Shown in pieces: positions 1 through 31,808 of a DNA stretch of 43,998 bases. Below the pieces are notes generated by a model. It saw only the letters and a program-made list of their open reading frames with translations. It was not told where the DNA came from and made no database searches. Where the stretch lies: NCBI GenBank assembly GCA_050186825.1, contig JBFWYD010000031.1, positions 1 through 43,998 on the forward strand, written 5' to 3'. Positions within the stretch are counted from its first letter, which is position 1, and every line of letters starts with the position of its first letter. Both the position numbers and the translations under genes were made by a program. Origin of the DNA: Planctomycetota bacterium. Lineage in GTDB: Bacteria; Planctomycetota; J058.

Positions 1-2
1 GA

Positions 3-42
3 CCCCGCTTGCCGGCCAAAGCAAGAGCGGGGTCGTCTCTTT
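3..42 (+). terminator. GC-rich stem-loop (ccccgcttgc ... gcaagagcgggg) followed by T-rich tract tcgtctcttt; candidate intrinsic terminator of an off-window upstream gene
   Basis: Inverted repeat with 8-nt loop read directly in the sequence, followed by a pyrimidine/T-rich run, and positioned ahead of the first credible gene. Confidence 0.3.
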
Positions 43-3341: not shown

Positions 3342-4111
3342 GTGACCGAGTCGAGCCCCCCGGCCCCCGAAGGCGTGGACTGGTTCCAGCCCGCCCGGAT
3401 CACCCCGCGGATCTTCCAGAACGGCTACATCACGGCGCGCCAGGGCGAGCGGCTGCTCGGGCTCGGCGTCACGCACCTGCTCAACCTCGACCTGCCCTAC
3501 GGCACGAGCGGGATCGTGATGCCGGCAGGGCTCACGGTGTGGGAGCTCCTGCTCCACGACATGGCGCCCATGTCGCCAGATGACGCTCGGCGAGTGGTCG
3601 CGCTCTTCCAGCGCGCCCTCGATCTCGAGCAGGGGCGGATCTACGTCCACTGCAACGCGGGCCTGAGCCGCTCGCCCACGGCCGTATGGCTCTACCTCGT
3701 CGCGGCTGGCTGGGAGCCGGACGAGGCCCGTCGCACCATCGGCGCCGCGGCCAAGCACCTCGACGCGCCCGACCCGATCCTGGTGGACCGACTCGACCTC
3801 GACGACCTGCGCGCCTGGCCCGAACCCCGCGCTGGGAGCTGTGGCGGCAGGGGGCGGGCACCTACCCGAACGCGCTGGCGGCCTTCGGGCGCGCAGCGCC
3901 CGGGGGCCGCCAGCTCGACGCAAGCGGTGTGGCCGAGCGCAGCTCGGCCTCCGCGCCAGCGAACCTGCTCGAGGTCTGCGAGGACGAGGGGACCGCGCGA
4001 GCGGCCCTGGAACGGCTCGAGGCGAAGCAGCGCGAGTACGAGGCGCGGGGCTTCCCGCATCGTGTCCGCTTCTGGGTCGAAGCCTCGCGACCGCCCAAGG
4101 AGACGACATGA
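3342..4111 (+). CDS. dual-specificity (Cys-based, CX5R) protein phosphatase. The reading frame switches from frame 0 to frame +2 near 3826-3845, and the C-terminal ~90 aa end at TGA 4109-4111 (frameshift, authentic or a sequencing error)
   Basis: The N-terminal 165 aa contain the DUSP/PTP P-loop VHCNAGLSRSPT (HCxxGxxRS/T) in a DUSP-like context. Frame 0 then runs stop-free as Arg/Pro junk to 4937. A protein-like sequence (WELWRQGAGTYPNALAAFG...LERLEAKQREYEARGFPHRVRFWVEASRPPKETT) resumes in frame +2 and ends exactly at an ATGA overlap with the next gene. Confidence 0.55.
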
Positions 4112-7392: not shown

Positions 7393-8166
7393 CTACGCCC
7401 GACGGCGGAGGCCAAGGTTCTGGTCGATCAGTCCGTTGAGCAGGCCACCCCCCCGGCGGCGCGCTCCCGAATTCGTTCCCAGCCCGCTGGCGGCGGGCGG
7501 CGGCGGCGGCGGCTCAGGGACCGCCGCTGGCGCGGGCGGCGGCTCCGCCCCGCGCGGCTCGGCCGCGTGGGTCCGCCCCGCCGCGGTCGACTGGCCCGGG
7601 TTGCGGAGCTCCACGTTGGCCCGCACCAGGCCCGCCAGGAGGCCCCCGCCGCCGCGCGGCATGGGCCGCGTCGTGTGTCCCGCGCCCTGGCTGGGCGCGC
7701 CCAGGCCCGCGGGCCGGCTCGGCGCCGCAGCCAGCGGCGTCGCGGCGACCGGCGCAGCGGCGACCGGCCCGTGCCCGAGCGGCGCGGCGACCGGCCCGTG
7801 CCCGAGCGGCGCGGCGACCGGCCCGTGCCCGAGCGGCCCGGCGACCGGCGCCGCGGCGGCGCGCTCGAGCCGCGCGGCGGCGCGCTCGAGCCTGGCCGCG
7901 ACCGCGGCCAGGCCCTCGCGCTCGCTGGCGCGCTCGGCCAGGCGCGCCTGCGCCTCGGCCAGCCGCTGGGCCAGCGCGTCGCGCTCGGCGCGCAGCCGGT
8001 CCAGCTCCGCCTGCGTCGGGCCCCCGCGGAGCTCGGCGCGCAGGCGCGCCACCTCCTCGCGCAGCCGGTTCCGCTCCTCCGAGAGGCGGGCGATGATCTC
8101 CACCGCGGCCCGCGGCAAGTCGCGGGTGCGGGAGAGGATCGCGGGGCTGCGCTCGAGGGTGGCCAC
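7393..8166 (-). CDS. coiled-coil plus Ala/Pro-rich repeat protein (candidate filament-associated adaptor)
   Basis: A GTG start follows a GGAG that overlaps the upstream stop (TGAGGAGCGAACACGTG). The N-terminal ~110 aa form a heptad-like coiled coil (ERNRLREEVARLRAELR...LAEAQARLAERASEREGLAAVAARLERAAARLERAAA). Then come three tandem GHGPVAAPL repeats, an Ala/Pro linker, and two copies of a GGGLL.GL...N..LR motif. Only the 3' ~775 nt of the 509-aa tracker ORF look protein-like. Confidence 0.5.
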   Translation of the reverse strand: MATLERSPAILSRTRDLPRAAVEIIARLSEERNRLREEVARLRAELRGGPTQAELDRLRAERDALAQRLAEAQARLAERASEREGLAAVAARLERAAARLERAAAAPVAGPLGHGPVAAPLGHGPVAAPLGHGPVAAAPVAATPLAAAPSRPAGLGAPSQGAGHTTRPMPRGGGGLLAGLVRANVELRNPGQSTAAGRTHAAEPRGAEPPPAPAAVPEPPPPPPAASGLGTNSGARRRGGGLLNGLIDQNLGLRRRA

Positions 8167-9615: not shown

Positions 9616-11433
9616 GTGATCGAGGTCCAGGCCCTCACCCAGCGCTACGGGAGCTACGAGGCGGTCCGCGAGCTGAGCTTCGCCCTGGGCGCGGGGGAGG
9701 TGGTCGGCTTCCTCGGCCCCAACGGGGCGGGCAAGTCGACGACCCTCAAGGTGATCGCGAGCTTCCTGGCCCCGAGCGCCGGCCGGGTCAGCGTCGGGGG
9801 CTGCGACGTGGCCCGCGACCCCCTCGGGGTCCGGGCCCGGCTGGGCTACCTGCCCGAGCACTGCCCCCTCTACGAGGAGATGCTCGCGCGCGAGCTGCTC
9901 GACTTCGCCGCGCGCGTCCGCGGCCTGAGCCGCGCCGAGCGCGCCGCGGCCCGCGCGCGCGTGGTCGAGCGCTGCCGGCTGGAGGAGGTGATCGAGCGCC
10001 CGGTCAGCGACCTGAGCAAGGGCTACCGCCAGCGCCTCGGGCTGGCGACCGCCCTCCTGCACGACCCCCGGATCCTGGTCCTCGACGAGCCGACCAGCGG
10101 GCTGGACCCGAACCAGGTGCTCGAGATGCGTGCGCTCGTGCGCGAGCTGGGCCAGGAGCGCACGGTCCTGTTCAGCAGCCACGTGCTCTCCGAGGTCGAG
10201 GCCACCTGCGAGCGCGTGGTCGTGATCCACCGCGGCCGCCTGGTCGCGGACGACGCGGTGGCGAGCCTGGCGCGGCGGATCACCGGAGGGGCGCTCGACG
10301 TCCGTGGGGCGGAGGCCGAGGCGGTCGCAGGCGTCCCAGGCGTGGCCGAGGCCGTGGCGCTCGCCGACGGGCGGGTGCGCGCGCGGCCGCGGGCCGGCGT
10401 CGAGGACCTCGCGGCGCGGCTGTTCCGCTGGGCGGCCGGGAGCGGCCGGGTGCTCGTGGAGATAGCGCCGCAGCGGGTCACGCTCGAGGACGTGTTCGCG
10501 GCGCTGACCGCGGATTCGAAGGCGGTCGCTCCGCAGGCTACGGGATCAGGAGCCGCGGAGGCGGCTCTCCCTAGCGCGGCGCAGAGCCGCAGAGCCGCAG
10601 AGGGGCCCTCGCAGGAGCCGGCGCGCGACTCGGAGACGCCGGATTCGCAGGCGGCGGCTACCGAAGCGGGGGGGACAGGAGCTGCGAAGGCGTTGGATTT
10701 CAGCGCAGAGATCGCAGAGAGCGCGGAGATCGGTGGGTGTGAGCGAAGGCGCGGCTCCGATCCGTCGGGTGAAGGAGAGAAAACGAGGGAGAGAGACTCG
10801 GATTCGGATTCGGCTTCGGACTCCCCCCCGGCCTCGGATGCGACCCCTCGCTCACACCCCGCGATCTCCGCGATCTCTGCGATCTCTGCGCTGAATATCA
10901 ACGCTGTCGCACCCCCTCACGACCCCGAGCTCGCAGCCCGCTCCGGCTGTGAGTCTCCGGGCTCGGTCTCGGACTCGGACTCGGTCTCGGACTCGGACTC
11001 GGACTCGGACTCGGTCTCGGACTCGGTCTCGGTCTCGGACTCGGACTCGGCCTCGGCCTCGGCCTCGGCCTCGGACTCGGCCTCGGCCTCGGCCTCGGAC
11101 TCGGACTCGGTCTCCGCCTCGGACTCGGACTCGGACTCGGACTCGGACTCGGACTCGGACTCGGTCTCGGACTCGGACTCGGACTCGGACTCGGACTCGG
11201 ACTCGGACTCGGACTCGGACTCGCCCTCGGACTCGCCCTCGGACTCGGACTCGCGCCCTCGCTCACACCCACCGATCTCCGCGGACTCTGCGATCTCTGC
11301 GCTGAATAACAACGCTGTCGCACACCCTCGCGATCCCGACCTCGCAACTCGCCCCCGCTCAGAGTCTCCGGCCTCGGCCTCGGCCTCGGCCTCGGACTCG
11401 GACTCGGCTTCGGACCCGGAGCGCCCCACGTGA
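9616..11433 (+). CDS. ABC transporter ATP-binding protein (GldA-like; ABC-2/gliding-motility-associated type) carrying a ~300-aa low-complexity C-terminal extension encoded by a repeat element
   Basis: Walker [11 protein letters not shown]-loop, ABC signature LSKGYRQRL, Walker [13 protein letters not shown] and H-loop SSHVL are all present. The ATPase fold ends near LEDVFAALT (about nt 10530). The ORF then continues without a stop through an inverted-repeat element and (GACTCG)n arrays that encode (SD)n, up to TGA 11431-11433, which overlaps the GTG of the next gene. Confidence 0.8.
10540..11430. repeat. composite dispersed repeat (copy 1): unit A (~10540-10750), unit B (~10845-10975), (GACTCG)n-type hexanucleotide microsatellite arrays (~10958-11260 and ~11378-11425), and a second partial unit B (~11255-11385)
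   Basis: Near-identical sequence (>90% by eye) recurs at 17735-18400. Unit A is gcagaggggccctc...gattcgcaggcggcggct(a/g)ccgaagcggggg...gttggatttcagcgcagagatcgcagagagcgcggagatcg. Unit B is cgc(t/c)cacaccc(a/g)ccgatctccgcg.actctgcgatctctgcgctgaata(t/a)caacgctgtcgcac.ccctc.cgatccc and occurs 3 times in the window. The tcggactcggac tracts are directly visible. Confidence 0.9.
10699..10895. repeat. ~50-bp imperfect inverted repeats flanking a ~95-nt loop (potential large hairpin of the MITE/RPE type)
   Basis: The left arm (ttcagcgcagagatcgcagagagcgcggagatcggtgggtgtgagcgaagg) and right arm (cctcgctcacaccccgcgatctccgcgatctctgcgatctctgcgctgaa) are reverse complements with about 3 mismatches. The same architecture recurs at ~17897-18127. 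Confidence 0.8.
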
Positions 11434-16486: not shown

Positions 16487-18429
16487 GTGCCCCGCTTCGT
16501 CCCCTGCCGGATCAGCCACCTCCTCGGCGAGCTGAGCGCGCTCCTGACCGAGCGCGACCGCGGGGCCTTCTACGCGCTGGCGCGCATCGTCGAGGCCTAC
16601 TACCACCACGCCGCCGGCGCCCAGACGCGCATGGCGGAGGAGCTCTACGCGCCCTTCGACCCCGACAGCGAGACCGTCCCGACCGTGGCCCCGCTCGGGG
16701 CCGACCCGGTCGGGCGGCTCTACGGCTGGCTGGACGGGCTGTTCGAGCGGGCCAACTTCGAGCGCGTCTCCCAGGACACGCTCCTCTCCGAGGCCGACCA
16801 GGAGGTGCTGACCACCTTCGAGATCGACCCCGACCTGCGCTCGGTCGAGCGCCTGGCCGTCTACGTGCGCGGGAGCGGGACCAAGGCCGTGCGCCTGCGC
16901 AAGGCCAAGGCCTTCTTCCGGCTCGAGGAGGCGGAGCAGCCCACCTACCGCCGCGTGGCGATCGTGGTCCGCACCGCGCACGACCCCTACGTGCTCCTGA
17001 AGATGTTCAAGGACGTGCCGCGCACCGACGTGGAGCTGCTGCTGCCCACCGTGCGCGTGAAGATGAAGCTCCTCGACAAGCTCAAGCTCTCGGGCACGGG
17101 CGGCGCCGCGGCGCTCTCGACCTGGAAGGTGCTCCGCCTCGCCTACACCTACGCGCCCACCATCACCAAGCTCCTGGCCGTCCCCTTCAAGCTGTTCCTG
17201 CTCCCGATCGCCTTCCTTGTCACGGCCTTCTACGGCGGCAAGACGGTCCTCGACTACGCCAAGATCCGCAGCAGCTACGTGACCGCGCTCGCCGAGCACC
17301 TCTACTCCATCACCCTCGCGAGCAACCGCGCCGTGCTCGGCCGCCTCGCCGCGCAGGCCGGCGAGGAGGACACCAAGGAGGCGCTGATCGCCTACGCGCT
17401 GCTGCTCGGCGCCCCCGAGGGGCTCTCCGCCGCCGCCCTGCGCGAGGCCGCCGAGGCCCTGGTCTGGGACCGCTACCGCGCGCGCGTCCGCTTCGACGTG
17501 GAGGACGCCCTGCGGAAGCTGAGCGAGCTCGAGCTGATCGAGCCGCTCGACGAGCAGCCAGGTGGCCCCGTGGCGCGCGCGGTCGACCTCGACGAGGCCC
17601 TTCGCCGCGTGGACAAGTCCTGGGACGACCTCTACAGCCCGCCGCCCCGCGAGACGCGGCTCTGGCGGCTGCTGCGGCGGAAGGAGCTCGCCGCGGGGGA
17701 GACTGCCGATTCGGAGGCGGTGACTGGCGAGGCGGAGGGATCAGGAGCTGCAGGGGCGGTTCAGCCCAGCGCAGCGGCGCAGAGGCGCGGAGACGCAGAG
17801 GGGCCCTCTCTGGAGCAGGCGCGCGACTCGGAGACGCCGGATTCGCAGGCGGCGGCTGCCGAAGCGGGGGGAACAGGAGCTGCGCAGGCGTTGGATTTCA
17901 GCGCAGAGATCGCAGAGAGCGCGGAGATCGCCAGGAGTGAGCGGAGGGGGGGCTCCGCAGCCCAGTCGGATCGGGACGAACGGACGGGCACGGGCACGGG
18001 CACGGGCACGGGCACGGGCATCCCAATGTCGAACTCGGACTCGGACTCGGACTCGCCCTCGGACTCGAAGTCGCGCCCTCGCCCACACCCACCGATCTCC
18101 GCGAACTCTGCGATCTCTGCGCTGAATAACAACGCTGTCGCACACCCTCGCGATCCCGGCCTCGCAACTCGCCCCGGCTCAGAGTCTCCGGCTTCGGCTT
18201 CGGACTCGGCCTCGGCCTCGGCCTCGGACTCGGACTCGGACTCGGTCCCGGACTCGGATTCGGATTCGGATTCGGATTCGGATTCGGCCTCGGCCTCGGC
18301 CTCGGACTCGGACTCGGACTCGGACTCGGACTCGGATTCGGATTCGGATTCGGACTCGGCCTCGAACTCGGACCCTGAAGCCGCGTCGGAAGACCCTGAC
18401 GACGTGCGGCCGATCCGGACGGTGCCGAG

Positions 18430-18433
<4 letters not shown>
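16487..18433 (+). CDS. DUF3754-like (TMEM143-like) membrane-associated protein. The core ends near nt 17700 and is followed by a ~240-aa low-complexity tail encoded by the second copy of the dispersed repeat
   Basis: The core of ~400 aa has a conserved-looking central hydrophobic hairpin (LLAVPFKLFLLPIAFLVTAFYGGKTVLDYAKIRSSYVTALAEHLYSITLASNRAVLGRL). The family call is from recollection only. The ORF continues stop-free through unit A, (GGGCAC)6 encoding TGTGTG, unit B and (GACTCG)n encoding (SD)n, to TGA 18431-18433, which overlaps the TTG start of the downstream kinase. Confidence 0.55.
17735..18400. repeat. composite dispersed repeat (copy 2): unit A (~17735-17950), inverted-repeat arms (~17897-17940 and ~18076-18127), (GGGCAC)6 (~17985-18020), unit B (~18073-18200), and a (GACTCG)n-type array (~18190-18370)
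   Basis: Direct nucleotide comparison with 10540-11430; the reading frame relative to the element is the same as in copy 1. Confidence 0.9.
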
Positions 18434-24373: not shown

Positions 24374-27300
24374 ATGAGGCCCTGGCCGGCCGCACTCGCC
24401 TACGCGGCGCTGCTCGCGCTCCCGGCCGCGGCGCAGCCCGCGGCCCAGGACCCGCTCGAGCGCTTCGCGGACGCGCTCCGGCGCGAGGCGGGCGAGGGGA
24501 AGCTGGCCGAGGCGCTCGCGATCTACCAGGCCCTCGCCGAAGACCCGACCACGCCCGCGGGCCTGCGCGCCCGCGCGCGGCTGCGCGCGGCGGCCTGCCT
24601 GGCGCAGCTCGGGCGCAAGGAGGAGGCGACCGCCATCTACGAGGAGCTGGCCCGCCGCGCGAGCGAGCCCGCCCGCCAGCGCGCCCAGGCCCGGGCCGCG
24701 CTCGAGGCCCTGCGGGTCGGCGGCGAGCTCGACCTCGCCCTGCGTCAGGACCGCGCCGGCAACCACGCCGCCGCGCAGCAGCTCTACTCGCGCCGGCTCA
24801 AGCGCCTGCCCGAGGACGCGCGCGGCTGGCTGCTGCGCGGGATCAGCCGCTACGCCGCGGGCGACCACGAGGGCGCCCAGGACGACCTCGAGCACGCGCT
24901 CGGGCTCAAGCCCCGCTGGTCGGTGGCCCTGCTCTGGCGCGCGCGCGCGGCGGCCGCGGCCGGCGACGACGAGCGGGCCGAGCGCGACCTCGACGCCGCG
25001 GTGACCCTGCGTCCGATGCAGCCCGAGGGCTACCTCGAGCGCGGTCGCTGGCACGCGAGCCGCCAGCGCTTCGACCTGGCCCAGCGCGACCTGGACCTGG
25101 CGCTGCGCCGCGACCCGGCCTGCCACGAGGCGCGGCTCGAGCTCGGGCGCCTGCACCTGGCGCGGCTCGACCTCGAGGCCGCCCGGCGCGAGCTGAGCGC
25201 CGTGGCGCGCCCTCGCGGCGCCGCCCCGCGGGCCGCGAGCGCGGCCCTGCTCGAGCTCGGCTGGCTGCTCGAGGCCGAGGCCGACCCGGTCCTGGCCCGC
25301 CTGGCCGCCGAGGAGCGCCTGGCCACGGCGGACGGCGCCGAGCACGAGGCCCCCCTGGCCGCGCTCCGGCGCGAGGCGACGCGCGCGGCGCTCCGGGCGG
25401 CCGAGTCGTCCTTCCGGCTCGCGCTCGAGCTCGACCCGAGCGCGATCGAAGCGGAGCTCGGCCTGCTCGAGCTGCGCGTCACAGCTCTCGAGGCCGCGCG
25501 CGCGGACGCGGGCCACGACGCGCAAGGCGGGGCGGAGCAGCCCTTGACCGCGACGATGCCGGCGGCATCGCCGGGCGCGCCGCGGCCGCAGGGATCGCCG
25601 GGCGCGCCGCGACCCGCGGGAGCCCCCGACGGGCGGCGACCCGAGGAGGGCCCCCACGCGCCGCGACCCGCGGGAGCGCCGGGCGCGTCGCGAGCCACGG
25701 GCGACCTCGCCGGCCCATCGCCTGGACCGGCGGGTCCCGCGATCGACGGCCGCGGCGGCGCGACGTCGCGCGACGAGCCGGGCGACACGTCGGGACCCGC
25801 CGCGTTCGGCGGCTCGGGCCTGGAGCCGTCGGCGGCGCTCGAGTCGCTGACGCGTAGGCTGGACGGGCTCTCGCCCTGCTCCCTCGACGAGCCGGAGGGA
25901 GAGGGCTGGCCGCTGCGCTGCGCGGAGCGGCGTCCGCTGCGCGAGTGGCGCGCGCGCGCCCTGCGGCTGCTGGCCCGCGCCCGCGCGCTGACCCACGACG
26001 TCCCGGGCGAGCGCGCCGCCTGGGAGCGCCTGCTCGCGCTCGACGCCCACGACCCCGCCGCGCTGGCCTGGCGCGCGCGCGGCGAGCGCGACCCGACCGC
26101 CCGCGCGCTGGCCGCGCGCGAGGCGCGCGACGCCGCGCAGGACGAGGCGCGCGCCGAGGGCCGCTGGCTGGCGCGCGCGCGCATCCGCTCGCGCCGCGCC
26201 CAGGGGCGCCGACTCCGCGCCGAGGAGCGCGCCGCGCTCTGGGCCTGCGCCCGCGCCTGGTCCGCGCTCCCCGGCGACGGCGAGGCCTTCCTGCTCGCGG
26301 CGCGCCTCACCGAGCGCGCGGGGCGCCGAGACCTCGCCCTCGAGCTCTCGCGCCGCGCCTGCGCCGCGGATCCGGACGCTCCCTCCGCCTGGGCATACCG
26401 CGGCCACCTGCTGGGCGGCGTGTCGCCCGCTCCCCACGCATCGCGCGACCCGAGCGCGACGGCCCCCGCGCACCTCGGCCCCGCGCACCTCGACCCCGCG
26501 CACCTCGACCCGCACGGCCCGCGCGACCCGACCCACGCGAAGCGCGACCCGAGCGACCCGAGCGACCCACGCGATTCCGGCGCGCCACCCGCGCTGCGCG
26601 ACCCGAGCGGCCCAGCTGCCCAAGGGGTCGCGCAGCGCGATCCGGCCGAGGCCGCGCGTTGCTACGACCGCGCGCTGGAGCTCGCGCTCGCGCAGTCCGC
26701 AGGCGCGCTCGACGCGTCCGCCGTCGAGGCCCTCGGCGGCCGCGCCCAGCTCCGGCTCGGCGCCCCCGACACCCGCGCCGCCGCGCGCGCGGACCTGCTG
26801 CGCATCCGCGACGGGGTCCCCCAGGACCTCGCGCCCCTCGACCCCTGGACCCTGCTCACCTGGCGGCGCGCCCTCGAGCTCCTGGCCGAGCTCCAGGCGA
26901 GCCCGCAGGACGAGGCCGAGCGCGCCCGCACCGCGGCTGCGCGCGAGCGCGTGACCGCGGCGATCGCCGCCCGCGCGCGCGCCGAGCTGCGCCGCGCCGA
27001 GCAGGCCGAGGCCAAGCTGGACTACCTGGGCGCGATCCGCGCCTACGAGCGCGTGCTCGCCCTCGACCCCGACGACGCCGAGGCGCATCGCGGCCGCGGC
27101 CAGGCGCATCTGCGCGCGGGCGACCTCCTGCTCGGCGCCCTGGACTTGTCGCGCGCCGCGCAGCTCGACCCGCGCCAGGGCCAGGCCCTGCTCGAGCGCG
27201 TGCGCCACGTCTCGCAGGTCGCCGACCTCGAGCGCGTCCTGCACGAGGCGACGGAGCTGGTCGAGTCGCTGCCCGAGGTGCCCGCCGCCCACCTCCTGCG

Positions 27301-27754
27301 CGGCCTCCTGACCCTGGCCCGCGCCGAGCTCGGCCGCGTCGGCCCCACCGACCTCGTCCAGGGGATCGCCGCCCTGGACCGCGCCCTGACCCTCGACCCG
27401 CGCTTCGTCCTCGCGCGCATCTGCCGCGGCAGCCTCGAGGAGGAGCTCGCCCGCCGCGGCGGCCCCGAGGCCCCCGCGTGCGCCCAGCGCGCCGACCGCG
27501 ACTTCGCCGCCGCCGAGGAGCTCTACCCCGCCGGCTGGCTCGCCCCCGCCCGCCGCGCCGCCCTCGCCGCCCGCGCCGCCGCGCGCCCCGAGCTCCCCGC
27601 CCGCGAGCGCGCGGCGCGGAGGACGCGGGCGCTCGAGCACCTGCGCCGCGCGGTGACCCGCGGCCTGGACCTCCAGGCGTGGCTCTCTCGCGAGACCGCC
27701 GCCGCGGCGGCCCTGAGCGGCCCGGAGCTGGAGGCGCTGCGCCGTCCGCGCTGA
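24374..27754 (+). CDS. secreted or lipoprotein-like TPR-repeat protein (1126 aa) with two internal low-complexity Pro/Gly/Ala/Asp segments
   Basis: N-terminal signal peptide MRPWPAALAYAALLALPAAAQPAAQDP. Many TPR-like 34-residue units (W..RG.....G....A..DL..AL.L.P). Low-complexity inserts occur at ~aa 395-480 (PGAPRPQGSPGAPRPAGAPDG...) and ~aa 690-760 (HLGPAHLDPAHLDPHGPRDPTHAKRDPSDPSDPRD). Confidence 0.65.
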   Translation: MRPWPAALAYAALLALPAAAQPAAQDPLERFADALRREAGEGKLAEALAIYQALAEDPTTPAGLRARARLRAAACLAQLGRKEEATAIYEELARRASEPARQRAQARAALEALRVGGELDLALRQDRAGNHAAAQQLYSRRLKRLPEDARGWLLRGISRYAAGDHEGAQDDLEHALGLKPRWSVALLWRARAAAAAGDDERAERDLDAAVTLRPMQPEGYLERGRWHASRQRFDLAQRDLDLALRRDPACHEARLELGRLHLARLDLEAARRELSAVARPRGAAPRAASAALLELGWLLEAEADPVLARLAAEERLATADGAEHEAPLAALRREATRAALRAAESSFRLALELDPSAIEAELGLLELRVTALEAARADAGHDAQGGAEQPLTATMPAASPGAPRPQGSPGAPRPAGAPDGRRPEEGPHAPRPAGAPGASRATGDLAGPSPGPAGPAIDGRGGATSRDEPGDTSGPAAFGGSGLEPSAALESLTRRLDGLSPCSLDEPEGEGWPLRCAERRPLREWRARALRLLARARALTHDVPGERAAWERLLALDAHDPAALAWRARGERDPTARALAAREARDAAQDEARAEGRWLARARIRSRRAQGRRLRAEERAALWACARAWSALPGDGEAFLLAARLTERAGRRDLALELSRRACAADPDAPSAWAYRGHLLGGVSPAPHASRDPSATAPAHLGPAHLDPAHLDPHGPRDPTHAKRDPSDPSDPRDSGAPPALRDPSGPAAQGVAQRDPAEAARCYDRALELALAQSAGALDASAVEALGGRAQLRLGAPDTRAAARADLLRIRDGVPQDLAPLDPWTLLTWRRALELLAELQASPQDEAERARTAAARERVTAAIAARARAELRRAEQAEAKLDYLGAIRAYERVLALDPDDAEAHRGRGQAHLRAGDLLLGALDLSRAAQLDPRQGQALLERVRHVSQVADLERVLHEATELVESLPEVPAAHLLRGLLTLARAELGRVGPTDLVQGIAALDRALTLDPRFVLARICRGSLEEELARRGGPEAPACAQRADRDFAAAEELYPAGWLAPARRAALAARAAARPELPARERAARRTRALEHLRRAVTRGLDLQAWLSRETAAAAALSGPELEALRRPR

Positions 27755-28880: not shown

Positions 28881-30407
28881 TCACCTCCCCGGCGGAGCGG
28901 CGAGGACGGCGGGGCGGCCGGTGACCAGGGCGTAGGTCCAGGGGTCGGCGAGGTGGGGCTCGCCCGGGAGGGCCTGGGTCGGGCACTCGGGCTCGCGCGT
29001 GCGACCGCGCATGCTGCGGCCGGCGGCGTGGCCGAGGACGGCGAGCCAGGCGCCGAGGAGCGCGGCGAGCAGCCAGCGTTGGGTGGGAGCGTGGCGGCGC
29101 CAGCGGACCAGGAGCTCGACGGCGGCGAGGGGGGCGAGGGCGCTGAGCGGCGCGATCGTGAAGCGCGTCGGGTCGTCGGTGGACCAGACCACGATCGTGG
29201 CGGCTGCGAGGCCCGCGGCGGCGAGGGCGAGCAGGCGACCGGCCGGGGCGCGCAGCGAGAGCAGGGCCAGGGGCAGGACCAGGAAGGCGTTCTTGGGCAG
29301 GAGGGCCGCCTCGAGCTGGTGCGCGAGGTTGCGCGCGATGCCCGCGAGGATCTGGGCCAGGCCCGCGGGCGGGGCGCTGCGCGCGGGGTCCATCAGGTCC
29401 TCGTAGCGCGCGGCGCGCAGCAGGTCGAGCTGCGGGGCGAGCACGCCGGTCGCGGCGCAGAGCGCGGCGTTGAGCGCGGCGAGGAGCGCGAGCAGCGCGA
29501 GCGCACGGCGGCGCCGGCCGCCCGCCCAGTGCCAGAGCACGAGCAGCGGGACCAGCACCCAGGCCTCGGGACGCGCGAAGCGGGCCAGGCCGGCGCAGAG
29601 GGCCTCGCCGAGGAGCGTGCCCCGACCGGCCGGGTCGAGCTCTCCCTGCCAGGCGAGGCGGAGGGCGGCGAGGACGAGCACCAGCCCCAGCGGCTCGGCC
29701 CAGAGGTGCACCGAGGCGCGGACCAGGAAGGGCAACCAGGCGACGGTCAGCCCTCCGAGCAGGGAGCACATGACCAAGGGAGCGCCGCGCAGACCGCGGC
29801 GCCGCGCGAGCTCGCCGCCGAGCGAGGCCGCGAGGACGGCGGCGAGCGCGGCCAGAGCCACGCCGCTGAGCTGGAGCGCGGCCGGTGGCCAGCCCGGCTC
29901 CGGGCGGACCAGGGGCGCGAGCAGCCACGGGTAGAGGGGAGCGCGCTCGCCGTAGGCCTCGTGGACGGCCGGAGCCTGCACGTCCGCGGCCTGGAAGCGG
30001 ACGCGGATCGGCAGGACGAAGCCCTCACCGGCGCGCAGCGAGCGCGCGATCAACAGGTTCTCGGCCGCATCGGGGCTGTGGTGGAAGTCGCGCAGGGCAG
30101 GCTCGAGGCGCGGGAGGACCGCGAGCACCGCGACCAGGAGCGCGAGCGCGATCCTCGGCAGGAGCCCAGGTCCATCCCGCGACACGGCCGCGAAGTCACG
30201 CGACCTCGACGCGGCCGCGGAGTCGCTCGACCTCGACACGGCCGCGAAGTCACGCGACCTCGACGCGACCGTGCTCTCACTCGACCTCGACGCGGCCGCG
30301 GAGTCGCTCGGCCTCGACGCGACCGTGCTCTCACTCGACCTCGACGCGGCCGCGGACTCGCTCGGCCTCGGAGACGCACGCGCGGGCTCGGGGATCGGGC
30401 TCGACAC
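28881..30407 (-). CDS. polytopic membrane glycosyltransferase-like protein (GT39/PMT_2/ArnT-like) with an N-terminal Ser-rich tandem 9-aa repeat region
   Basis: The C-terminal ~440 aa are extremely hydrophobic with at least 9 predicted TM helices. The first-loop motif is LRDFHHSPDAAENLLIARSLRAGEGFVL, resembling the D-E/A-A...Y/L loop of PMT_2/ArnT proteins. The start is assigned to GTG 30407-30405, 8 nt after the DUF58 stop, which places the 27-bp x7 repeat in-frame. An alternative start lies near 30193, after the repeat. The upstream 324 codons of the tracker ORF are Arg/Pro junk antisense to the DUF58 gene. Confidence 0.5.
   Translation of the reverse strand: MSSPIPEPARASPRPSESAAASRSSESTVASRPSDSAAASRSSESTVASRSRDFAAVSRSSDSAAASRSRDFAAVSRDGPGLLPRIALALLVAVLAVLPRLEPALRDFHHSPDAAENLLIARSLRAGEGFVLPIRVRFQAADVQAPAVHEAYGERAPLYPWLLAPLVRPEPGWPPAALQLSGVALAALAAVLAASLGGELARRRGLRGAPLVMCSLLGGLTVAWLPFLVRASVHLWAEPLGLVLVLAALRLAWQGELDPAGRGTLLGEALCAGLARFARPEAWVLVPLLVLWHWAGGRRRRALALLALLAALNAALCAATGVLAPQLDLLRAARYEDLMDPARSAPPAGLAQILAGIARNLAHQLEAALLPKNAFLVLPLALLSLRAPAGRLLALAAAGLAAATIVVWSTDDPTRFTIAPLSALAPLAAVELLVRWRRHAPTQRWLLAALLGAWLAVLGHAAGRSMRGRTREPECPTQALPGEPHLADPWTYALVTGRPAVLAAPPGR
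30184..30372. repeat. 27-bp tandem repeat x7 (minisatellite; consensus approximately gcggccgcggagtcgctcgacctcgac, alternating with the variants acggccgcgaagtcacgcgacctcgac and gcgaccgtgctctcactcgacctcgac)
   Basis: Seven contiguous 27-nt units are read directly. The period is divisible by 3. In the minus gene frame they encode 9-aa units (SRSSESTVA, SRPSDSAAA, SRSRDFAAV). Confidence 0.9.
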
Positions 30408-30415
30408 GCGCGCCT

Positions 30416-31306
30416 TCAGGCGCGCAGCAGCGCGCGGGCGGTGGCCTCGAAGGGGTCCGCGGGCGGGAGCCGCAGGCAGGTCACGCCGGCCTGCTCGAGC
30501 TCGCGGGTCGCGCGGTCGAGGCGGGCGTCGCGCTCGGTGCGCGCGGCCGCGAGGGCCAGGGGGCCGAGGGGGCGCAGCTCGCGGGCGCCGGTCTCGGCGT
30601 CGACGAGCTCGGCCAGGCCGCCCGCGGCGAGGGCCTCGCGCACGGCCGGGGGGACCTCGAGCTCGGGCTCGACCAGGAGCGCGCGCAGCTCGCAGCCGCG
30701 GGCGCGCAGGCGGCGCGCGGCGAGGGGGAGCTCTGGGTTGAGGCCGTCCGAGAGCAGGAGCGCGGCGCCGGGATGGCGGAGGTGCTGGGTGGCCAGGGTC
30801 GCGCCCCGATCGAGCGCGCTGGGGCCGCCGGCGCGGCCAACGGCCAGGAAGCGCAAGAGGCCCCGGAGCTGGCCCGGGCGGCGCAGCTCGTGGCGGCCGA
30901 GGGCCTCGCCGCACCACCAGAGCACCACGCGCACGTCGCGGGCCACGGCCACGGCCGCCAGGGCCGCGGCCGCCAGGGCGGCGCGCTCGAGCGGCGGCGG
31001 GTCGCCCGCGGCCATGGAGCCGCTGGCGTCGAGGAGCAGGTCGAGCCGCGGCTCGGGGAGCTCCTCCTGCACCTTGACCAGCAGGCGGTCGAGGCGCGCG
31101 TAGGCCGGCCAGTCGACCAGGCGCAGGTCGTCGCCCGGGGCGTAGTCGCGCCGGCTGCCCGGCTCGACCCCGCGGCCCGGCTGCTTGAGCGCGAAGCGCC
31201 GGCGTCGCGGCGGCCGGACCCGGCGGGCCAGGACCACCAGACGCTCGAGGCGCGCCGCCGTGCTCGACTCGAGGAGGACGCTCACCGCCGTCGTTGACCT
31301 CGCCAT
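30416..31306 (-). CDS. DUF58 family protein (VWA-like; usually partnered with MoxR AAA+ ATPases)
   Basis: The N-terminal DUF58 signature is G.G.E.GSRRDYAPGDDLRLVDWPAYARLDRLLVKVQEE, followed by the MIDAS-like LDASGSM; the protein is 296 aa. Confidence 0.8.
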   Translation of the reverse strand: MARSTTAVSVLLESSTAARLERLVVLARRVRPPRRRRFALKQPGRGVEPGSRRDYAPGDDLRLVDWPAYARLDRLLVKVQEELPEPRLDLLLDASGSMAAGDPPPLERAALAAAALAAVAVARDVRVVLWWCGEALGRHELRRPGQLRGLLRFLAVGRAGGPSALDRGATLATQHLRHPGAALLLSDGLNPELPLAARRLRARGCELRALLVEPELEVPPAVREALAAGGLAELVDAETGARELRPLGPLALAAARTERDARLDRATRELEQAGVTCLRLPPADPFEATARALLRA

Positions 31307-31364
31307 CCGCGCCCGCCGCCTCGACCAGGGACGAAGGCTGTCGCCTCCTGCAGGCGTCGCTCAG

Positions 31365-31808
31365 GATATCGCTCTCCATGCTCTACGCGCGGGACCCGTG
31401 GCCGGCGACGAGCCGGACCAGCGCGCCGACCTCTACTCCTTCGGCGTCATCCTGTTCGAGCTGCTGACGGGCGCCCTGCCGCTGACCGCGCTGACCGTCC
31501 GCGGCTTCCTGCGCGAGCACCTGGTCGCCGTGCCCCGGACCCTGGCGTCGGTGCGCCCCGAGGTCGCCTGGCCCGAAGGGATCGAGCGGCTCCTCGCGCA
31601 GCTCCTCGCCAAGGGCCCCGGCCAGCGGCCTGCCAGCGCCGCGACGGTCGAGGCCGAGCTCCATCGGCTGGCCAGGCCGATCGCGGCGGCCTTCGCCCAG
31701 GAGCCGCTCGGCCGCCGCCCCGCCGCCCGCACACCTCGTCCCCTGGGTCCCGACCCCGACCGCGTGCGTGGCTCGGGCGCCGTGACGGGCCCGCCCGCGC
31801 GGTCGTAG
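31365..31808 (+). pseudogene. C-terminal fragment of a Hanks-type Ser/Thr kinase (subdomains IX-XI plus tail only), with no N-lobe, catalytic loop or DFG
   Basis: DEPDQRADLYSFGVILFELLTGALP (subdomain IX D.YS.G..L.ELLTG) and the downstream LREHLV...P....RP...P.GIERLLAQLLAKGPGQRP (subdomain XI) are present. Nothing N-terminal to these exists because the DUF58 gene occupies the upstream DNA on the opposite strand. Confidence 0.55.

Follow-up and report, generated by a model that had tools for sequence, protein, structure and literature searches.

An in-frame 27-nt tandem array at the 5′ edge of a GT-C-fold membrane protein gene in a Planctomycetota genome: a candidate N-terminal tail

We analyzed a 43,998-nt contig of a Planctomycetota bacterium (JBFWYD010000031.1, assembly GCA_050186825.1), hereafter the window, which has a G+C content of 75.8%. 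A tandem array of 27-nt units lies there between a DUF58 protein gene and a gene for a GT-C-fold membrane protein, both on the minus strand. The array runs from 8 nt past the DUF58 stop up to the annotated GTG of the next co-directional gene, and the frame of that gene is open throughout. With moderate confidence, and from the sequence context, we favor the explanation that the array is an in-frame insertion translated from a GTG at 30407, which would yield a 508-aa GT-C enzyme with a Ser/Ala/Arg-rich tail.

Analysis with Tandem Repeats Finder (TRF) returned a single array at 30180..30370 with a period of 27 nt, 7.1 copies, 78% matches and 0 indels, together with higher-order periods of 54 nt (90% matches) and 81 nt. 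An independent repeat search found 7 copies at a spacing of exactly 27 nt. A degenerate pattern of the unit gave 5 matches at the array compared with 0.00 expected from 100 shuffles, and it had no other match anywhere in the 44-kb window. On the minus strand, translation in the reading frame of the downstream gene gives units RPSESAAAS, RSSESTVAS, RPSDSAAAS, RSSESTVAS, RSRDFAAVS, RSSDSAAAS and RSRDFAAVS, which fall into three variants arranged as A B A B C A C. Both B units are mutually identical, as are both C units, and the A and B units carry TCC and AGC, respectively, both of which are Ser codons. These results bear out the first-pass annotation, which had described seven head-to-tail 27-bp units in three interleaved variants.

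The extent given at that stage proved too short. The 7 × 27 array at 30184..30372 represents the well-preserved rows in the phase chosen then, whereas phasing by direct reading showed that repeat-derived DNA makes up the whole 222 nt from GTG 30407 to the annotated start. This stretch phases as eight rows opening gYg tcg, two of them diverged and 30 nt long and six of 27 nt. The two degenerate 30-nt rows (30348..30407, minus strand), aligned by eye with the 27-nt rows, read GTG TCG AGC CCG ATC CCC GAG CCC GCG CGT (row a, 30407..30378) and GCG TCT CCG AGG CCG AGC GAG TCC GCG GCC (row b, 30377..30348); the repeat search placed an additional 79% copy of repeat family D2 at 30395..30413. The six well-preserved rows (30186..30347, minus strand, phase gYg tcg agg) were recovered by TRF, the repeat search and the unit pattern. 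The array opens at one in-frame GTG TCG, and another, in GTG TCG CGG at 30185, comes after the last row. Every row length is divisible by 3, both deviations in the old 30-nt rows being +3 nt, and no stop codon interrupts the shared frame between GTG 30407 and the gene body. The array thus has the multiple-of-3 period of an in-frame variable-number tandem repeat (VNTR), at 27 nt and, in the older rows, 30 nt. That GTG 30407 is in frame with the gene and that the repeat would encode a Ser-rich tail, as had been proposed, both hold.

The gene body of the downstream membrane protein (28881..30185, minus strand, 434 aa as annotated) was characterized from its homologs, an AlphaFold2 model and Foldseek. 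The protein matched no Pfam or NCBIfam entry, and the family profile found no match among PDB sequences. The AlphaFold2 model, built from 30 homologs, had a mean predicted local distance difference test score (pLDDT) of 81.6 and a predicted template modeling score (pTM) of 0.81, with residues 1–80, the tail region, scoring about 43–53. The top 32 Foldseek matches in PDB were all GT-C enzymes (probability at least 0.98, TM-score 0.45–0.52), and they included AglB, PglB, STT3, ArnT (5f15), AftB, AftA, ALG12, ALG9, Pmt4, PimE and DPY19. The results demonstrated that this polytopic membrane protein has a GT-C core fold. The first transmembrane helix (TM1; residues 82–106 of the 508-aa reading, 30090..30164, minus strand) was modeled with pLDDT > 90, and the array lies between the DUF58 stop (TGA 30418..30416) and this helix (30164..30090), in agreement with the first-pass annotation.

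D113 and E116 of the motif SPDAAE, located in the first extracytoplasmic loop following TM1, do not vary among the 30 homologs (codons D113-A-A-E116 at 30060..30071, minus strand, from the alignment of homologs) and may be equivalent to the catalytic Asp of ArnT or PglB. The window protein resembles GT-C enzymes of the PMT_2/ArnT type (PF13231; PDB 5f15) in its fold (Foldseek probability 1.0) and in this invariant Asp/Glu motif after TM1, but differs from them in having no Pfam, NCBIfam or PDB sequence-profile match. Three distant homologs recovered by an exhaustive HMMER search (P0047, P0062 and P0073) passed the Pfam PMT_2 gathering score, whereas the window protein itself did not. The earlier description of a PMT/ArnT-like glycosyltransferase is therefore valid, on the modeled structure, at the fold and superfamily level only. 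The family is a small uncharacterised clade of 55 representatives among 1.84 billion proteins, and those members that bear a source name come from Planctomycetota metagenome-assembled genomes (MAGs). GT-C enzymes have a cytoplasmic N-terminus, so the repeat tail would be cytoplasmic if translated.

Compared with the other members of the GT-C family, only the window protein carries the repeat tail; a comparable repeat was absent from the 30 aligned homologs, the 55 representatives and 10 related loci. TM1 begins at residue 3–30 in nearly all of the ~55 family representatives. In one GT-C sub-clade (L011 2857..3000, P0007 and P0008), TM1 is preceded by a region of ~40 residues rich in S/T/P, which is partly conserved in amino acid sequence among the three and is included by gene callers in only two of them. 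N-terminal tail length may thus vary elsewhere in the GT-C family. In L006, a locus of a related planctomycete MAG, a 12-nt × 8.7 array at 3689..3792 gives the N-terminal tail of a divergent neighbour an (EAGV/EAGD)-type repeat, just before a twin-arginine-like RRRLTRRRLL motif, and illustrates that an N-terminal tandem repeat can be coding in this group. This array lies upstream of the L006 ortholog but is part of the divergent neighbouring gene, and it was set aside as unrelated. A metagenome scan with a 22-mer of unit B retrieved one contig (L012), an unrelated sequence without a tandem repeat, which was rejected as a chance match rather than a second carrier. The tail-only matches in the representative search (P0060 and P0065) are eukaryotic repeat proteins and were likewise dismissed as chance.

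Three in-frame GTG codons are candidate starts of the GT-C gene. The public product of the NCBI Prokaryotic Genome Annotation Pipeline (PGAP), P0001 (434 aa, 100% identical), starts at the GTG at 30183..30185 (minus strand), within the last repeat unit, and this leaves 230 nt annotated as intergenic. The nearest GAGG to this start lies 18 nt upstream. The upstream candidate GTG (30405..30407, minus strand) is located 8 nt after the DUF58 stop TGA (30416..30418, minus strand; the end of the open reading frame by direct reading) and is preceded at 5 nt by a Shine-Dalgarno-like GAAGG (30413..30417, minus strand). A comparable Shine-Dalgarno-like motif, GGAAGGAG, stands 6 nt before the ATG of the CutA1 gene in the window. 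An internal in-frame GTG at a C/A unit junction (30237..30239, minus strand) is a third possible start. RNA folding and accessibility around the three GTGs did not discriminate between them, all being more structured than typical starts and none standing out. The 508-aa product was not on record when looked up.

The upstream gene (30416..31285, minus strand) encodes a protein that matches Pfam DUF58 with an E-value of 1.7e-15; PGAP starts it at GTG 31285 (289 aa), and the first ATG of its open frame is at 31306. The C-terminus ...LLRA* is shared with L002 and L013, the two closest relatives in which the DUF58 gene is also adjacent (66–67% identity). In both relatives the GT-C gene starts 1–2 nt past the ...LLRA* stop, with TGA-g-GTG in L002 and TAG-cg-GTG in L013. 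In the window, the codons after GTG 30407 are TCG AGC CCG ATC CCC (S-S-P-I-P). The homolog P0009 has the N-terminus MNARSPIPW, encoded in L014 with TCC CCG ATC CCC, which is identical at 10/12 nt to AGC CCG ATC CCC of the window, and the N-termini of P0002 and P0003 read MR(S/A)RPHPW. The conserved W of the relatives aligns with window R85 (AGG vs TGG), directly before TM1. These sequences are most simply explained by an ancestral start at 30407 and an insertion of ~78 codons, placed after 'SPIP' and ahead of the W/R that precedes TM1. A MAFFT alignment of the window and L002 junctions was uninformative across the insertion. The contig with P0009, L014, opens at 1..25 with cagtggtatcaacgcagagtac, which resembles what we take to be a cDNA-synthesis (template-switch) adapter; this Logan assembly may presumably derive from a transcriptome library.

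We propose that the array is young and specific to this lineage, and that it grew by tandem expansion within the opening codons of a GT-C-fold gene whose translation would be coupled to that of the DUF58 gene upstream. The original start region, made up of the DUF58 stop, GAAGG and GTG 30407, would have been kept at the 5′ edge of the array, and for this reason ribosomes most likely still initiate at 30407 and read through the 222 nt. The predicted product would be 508 aa long, with a disordered cytoplasmic N-terminus that is 74 residues longer and holds about eight 9–10-residue repeats before TM1. Unequal recombination or slippage among the 27/54-nt units could alter the length of this tail without a frameshift.

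Several points weigh against translation of the array from 30407. With 84 residues, the resulting N-terminus would exceed all others in the family (~55 representatives), the SPIP match is a single 4-residue coincidence (rough p 0.01–0.05), and PGAP, in a homology-guided choice, places the start at 30185 and the array in intergenic DNA. Open frames and in-frame GTGs are cheap in DNA of 76% G+C. The codon log-likelihood of the array is −4.08 per codon, compared with −3.26 ± 0.135 for 222-nt pieces of real window genes, and the array holds 7 AGG codons (1.4% of Arg codons) plus AGT, CGT and TCT. Finally, the sequence comes from a short-read MAG assembly, and the copy number may be wrong. As regards the codons, the unique segment GAT GGA CCT that separates the array from TM1 is coding whichever start is used, and it is equally rich in rare codons, so the rare codons of the array are not decisive. 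Because the units are copies of one another, the rare codons also represent few independent events. The G+C content at third codon positions is ~0.9 across the array in the gene frame. The codon usage is atypical, but with the copying of units, the third-position G+C and GAT GGA CCT all softening this signal, it suggests an array that is young rather than untranslatable.

To a rival explanation we assign a lower but still considerable likelihood: the array may be a non-coding intercistronic minisatellite in a 230-nt untranslated spacer (30186..30415), with the enzyme translated from GTG 30185 as MSRDGPGLLPR followed by TM1. The open frame and the upstream GTG would then be by-products of 76% G+C and of a unit that contains GTG TCG, and stop-free frames are indeed common in this DNA, two of the three frames on the gene strand being open over the array. 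The PGAP call at 30185, which leaves 24 residues to the PRL motif (family range 5–27), the atypical codon usage in the gene frame and the absence of the repeat from all relatives examined are consistent with this explanation. On the other hand, GTG 30185 has no Shine-Dalgarno-like motif at a usable distance, the closest relatives (L002 and L013) have no spacer, and ribosomes starting at the intact 30407 context would enter the gene anyway. Both old rows, moreover, deviate in length by +3 nt. A scan of 29900..31500 detected no promoter-like or terminator-like site, which also counts against this rival, and the predicted RNA structure of the spacer (minimum free energy −158 kcal/mol) did not go beyond shuffled controls (z = −1.24). 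The first-pass annotation had allowed that the array would be non-coding if orthologs lacked it and shared a start near 30193; the repeat is absent from relatives and the PGAP start is at 30185, but the starts of L002 and L013 and the SPIP codons favor 30407.

A plus-strand coding sequence that contains the array or gave rise to it, with the frame ...LDLDAAAESLGLDATVLS... (LDLDAAAESLG...), is very improbable. Of the six frames, this one comes closest to genes in its codon usage (−3.15 to −3.5 per codon over 30196..30400, inside the range of real genes), but its third positions are common with those of the gene frame, as is usual for a 'shadow' frame in high-G+C genes. No start codon precedes the array in this frame, whose first GTG is at 30271; the frame continues for 325 nt into the DUF58 gene in antisense, where its codon usage is very poor (−4.4 to −4.9), and the peptide has no homolog in 5.8 billion proteins. 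The plus-strand frame was rejected on these grounds. Somewhat less remote, though still quite unlikely, is the explanation that the copy number or unit order is an artefact of short-read metagenome-bin assembly and that the organism has a shorter or differently ordered repeat. Tandem arrays that exceed the read length are prone to mis-assembly (PMC6868369). The only other NCBI contig with these genes is not an independent strain, because it gives identical products for the two long hexamer arrays described below. Against an artefact, the three distinct unit variants stand in a definite order and provide unique k-mers across the junctions, and the array spans only ~190–220 nt, which is within paired-read reach. 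Translation from GTG 30407 is therefore the explanation we retain as the most probable one.

The array shares features with three known repeat systems. PE/PPE VNTRs also consist of head-to-tail units of a multiple of 3 in or at the edge of an open reading frame, where copy change alters length without a frameshift, and intragenic pe/ppe structural variants of Mycobacterium tuberculosis are predominantly in frame (17/25; PMC12817950). The present array is set apart by its place in the gene for a membrane enzyme, where it would form the cytoplasmic N-terminal tail, instead of in that for a surface protein. Contingency loci resemble it in placing a repeat tract at the 5′ end of the gene for an envelope-modifying enzyme, but they use 1–8-nt units that switch expression on or off by frameshift or promoter spacing, whereas the 27-nt unit keeps the frame and is accompanied by no promoter-like site in the scanned interval. 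The contingency-locus-like behavior suggested by the first-pass annotation is thus not upheld, since a 27-nt period cannot frameshift the gene on or off. Mycobacterial interspersed repetitive units (MIRUs) are longer than 27 nt. They are comparable in that the array separates two operon genes of the same direction and adjoins the start codon of the second, but MIRUs are dispersed at many loci and the 27-nt unit was seen at one locus only in the 44 kb searched. According to a review, MIRUs are mobile, insert at start codons inside operons, and preserve downstream translation or coupling by an open reading frame through the repeat that ends in a −4 nt stop/start overlap (PMC12548453). In contrast, the frame of the array is fused to the downstream gene without a stop, and the −4 nt overlap was not found.

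Two further intercistronic insertions in the window are in frame with a neighbouring gene. These are paralogous low-complexity cassettes of 0.7–0.9 kb, ~80% identical over 685 nt: cassette 1 (10497..11433, plus strand) includes a hexamer array CGGACT × 49 at 10958..11253, and cassette 2 (17692..18433, plus strand) includes TCGGAC × 29 at 18200..18373. Both also carry 9-mer mini-arrays (CGCAGAGAT, CGATCTCTG). With no stop in between, each cassette extends the frame of an unrelated gene at its 3′ end, an ABC-ATPase-like open reading frame (9616..11433) for cassette 1 and an uncharacterised one (16487..18433) for cassette 2, and the C-terminal extensions encoded in this way are (Ser-Asp)n-rich and shared by both. 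Each of the two frames ends in a 4-nt overlap with the candidate start of the next gene (11430/11433 and 18430/18433), and the PGAP annotation includes both long proteins (605 and 648 aa). By analogy, the (Ser-Asp)n cassettes look like an ORF-preserving, MIRU-like intercistronic element.

All three intercistronic repeat insertions considered in the window are therefore open and in frame with a neighbour. Since two other insertions of this kind are in frame, translated-through intercistronic repeats seem usual in this genome, and the 3/3 count, together with the MIRU-like logic, raises the prior for read-through of the 27-nt array. Short tandem repeats are abundant in the genome, as TRF gave 167 rows in 44 kb at a minimum score of 30. 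Two other arrays with a 27-nt period were observed, one at 7757..7849 (3.4 copies, 98% matches) and one at 25562..25701 (5.2 copies, 75% matches), the latter in a Pro/Gly/Ala-rich stretch of the gene for a 1126-aa TPR protein (24374..27754, plus strand).

A lineage-specific in-frame repeat tail is a fairly ordinary event, in-frame VNTRs being already well known in high-G+C bacteria. A broader interpretation, which we regard as unlikely but worth stating, is that the genome systematically keeps intercistronic repeats translatable, so that those arriving between coupled genes would persist solely as ORF-preserving linkers whose length would tune coupling or add regulatory tails to operon proteins, and that these form a MIRU-like class outside Actinobacteria. 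The 27-nt array and the two (Ser-Asp)n cassettes would then be instances of one rule, and the tails may serve, for example, as Ser-rich kinase targets. If the tail of the GT-C enzyme is translated, the public gene-start annotation is 74 codons too short, and an uncharacterised GT-C family gains a member with a length-variable cytoplasmic tail. Such a case would help in annotating start sites in very high-G+C genomes, its wider consequence being limited, and the in-frame, open intercistronic repeats of this genome bear on how translational coupling constrains the insertion of repeats into operons.

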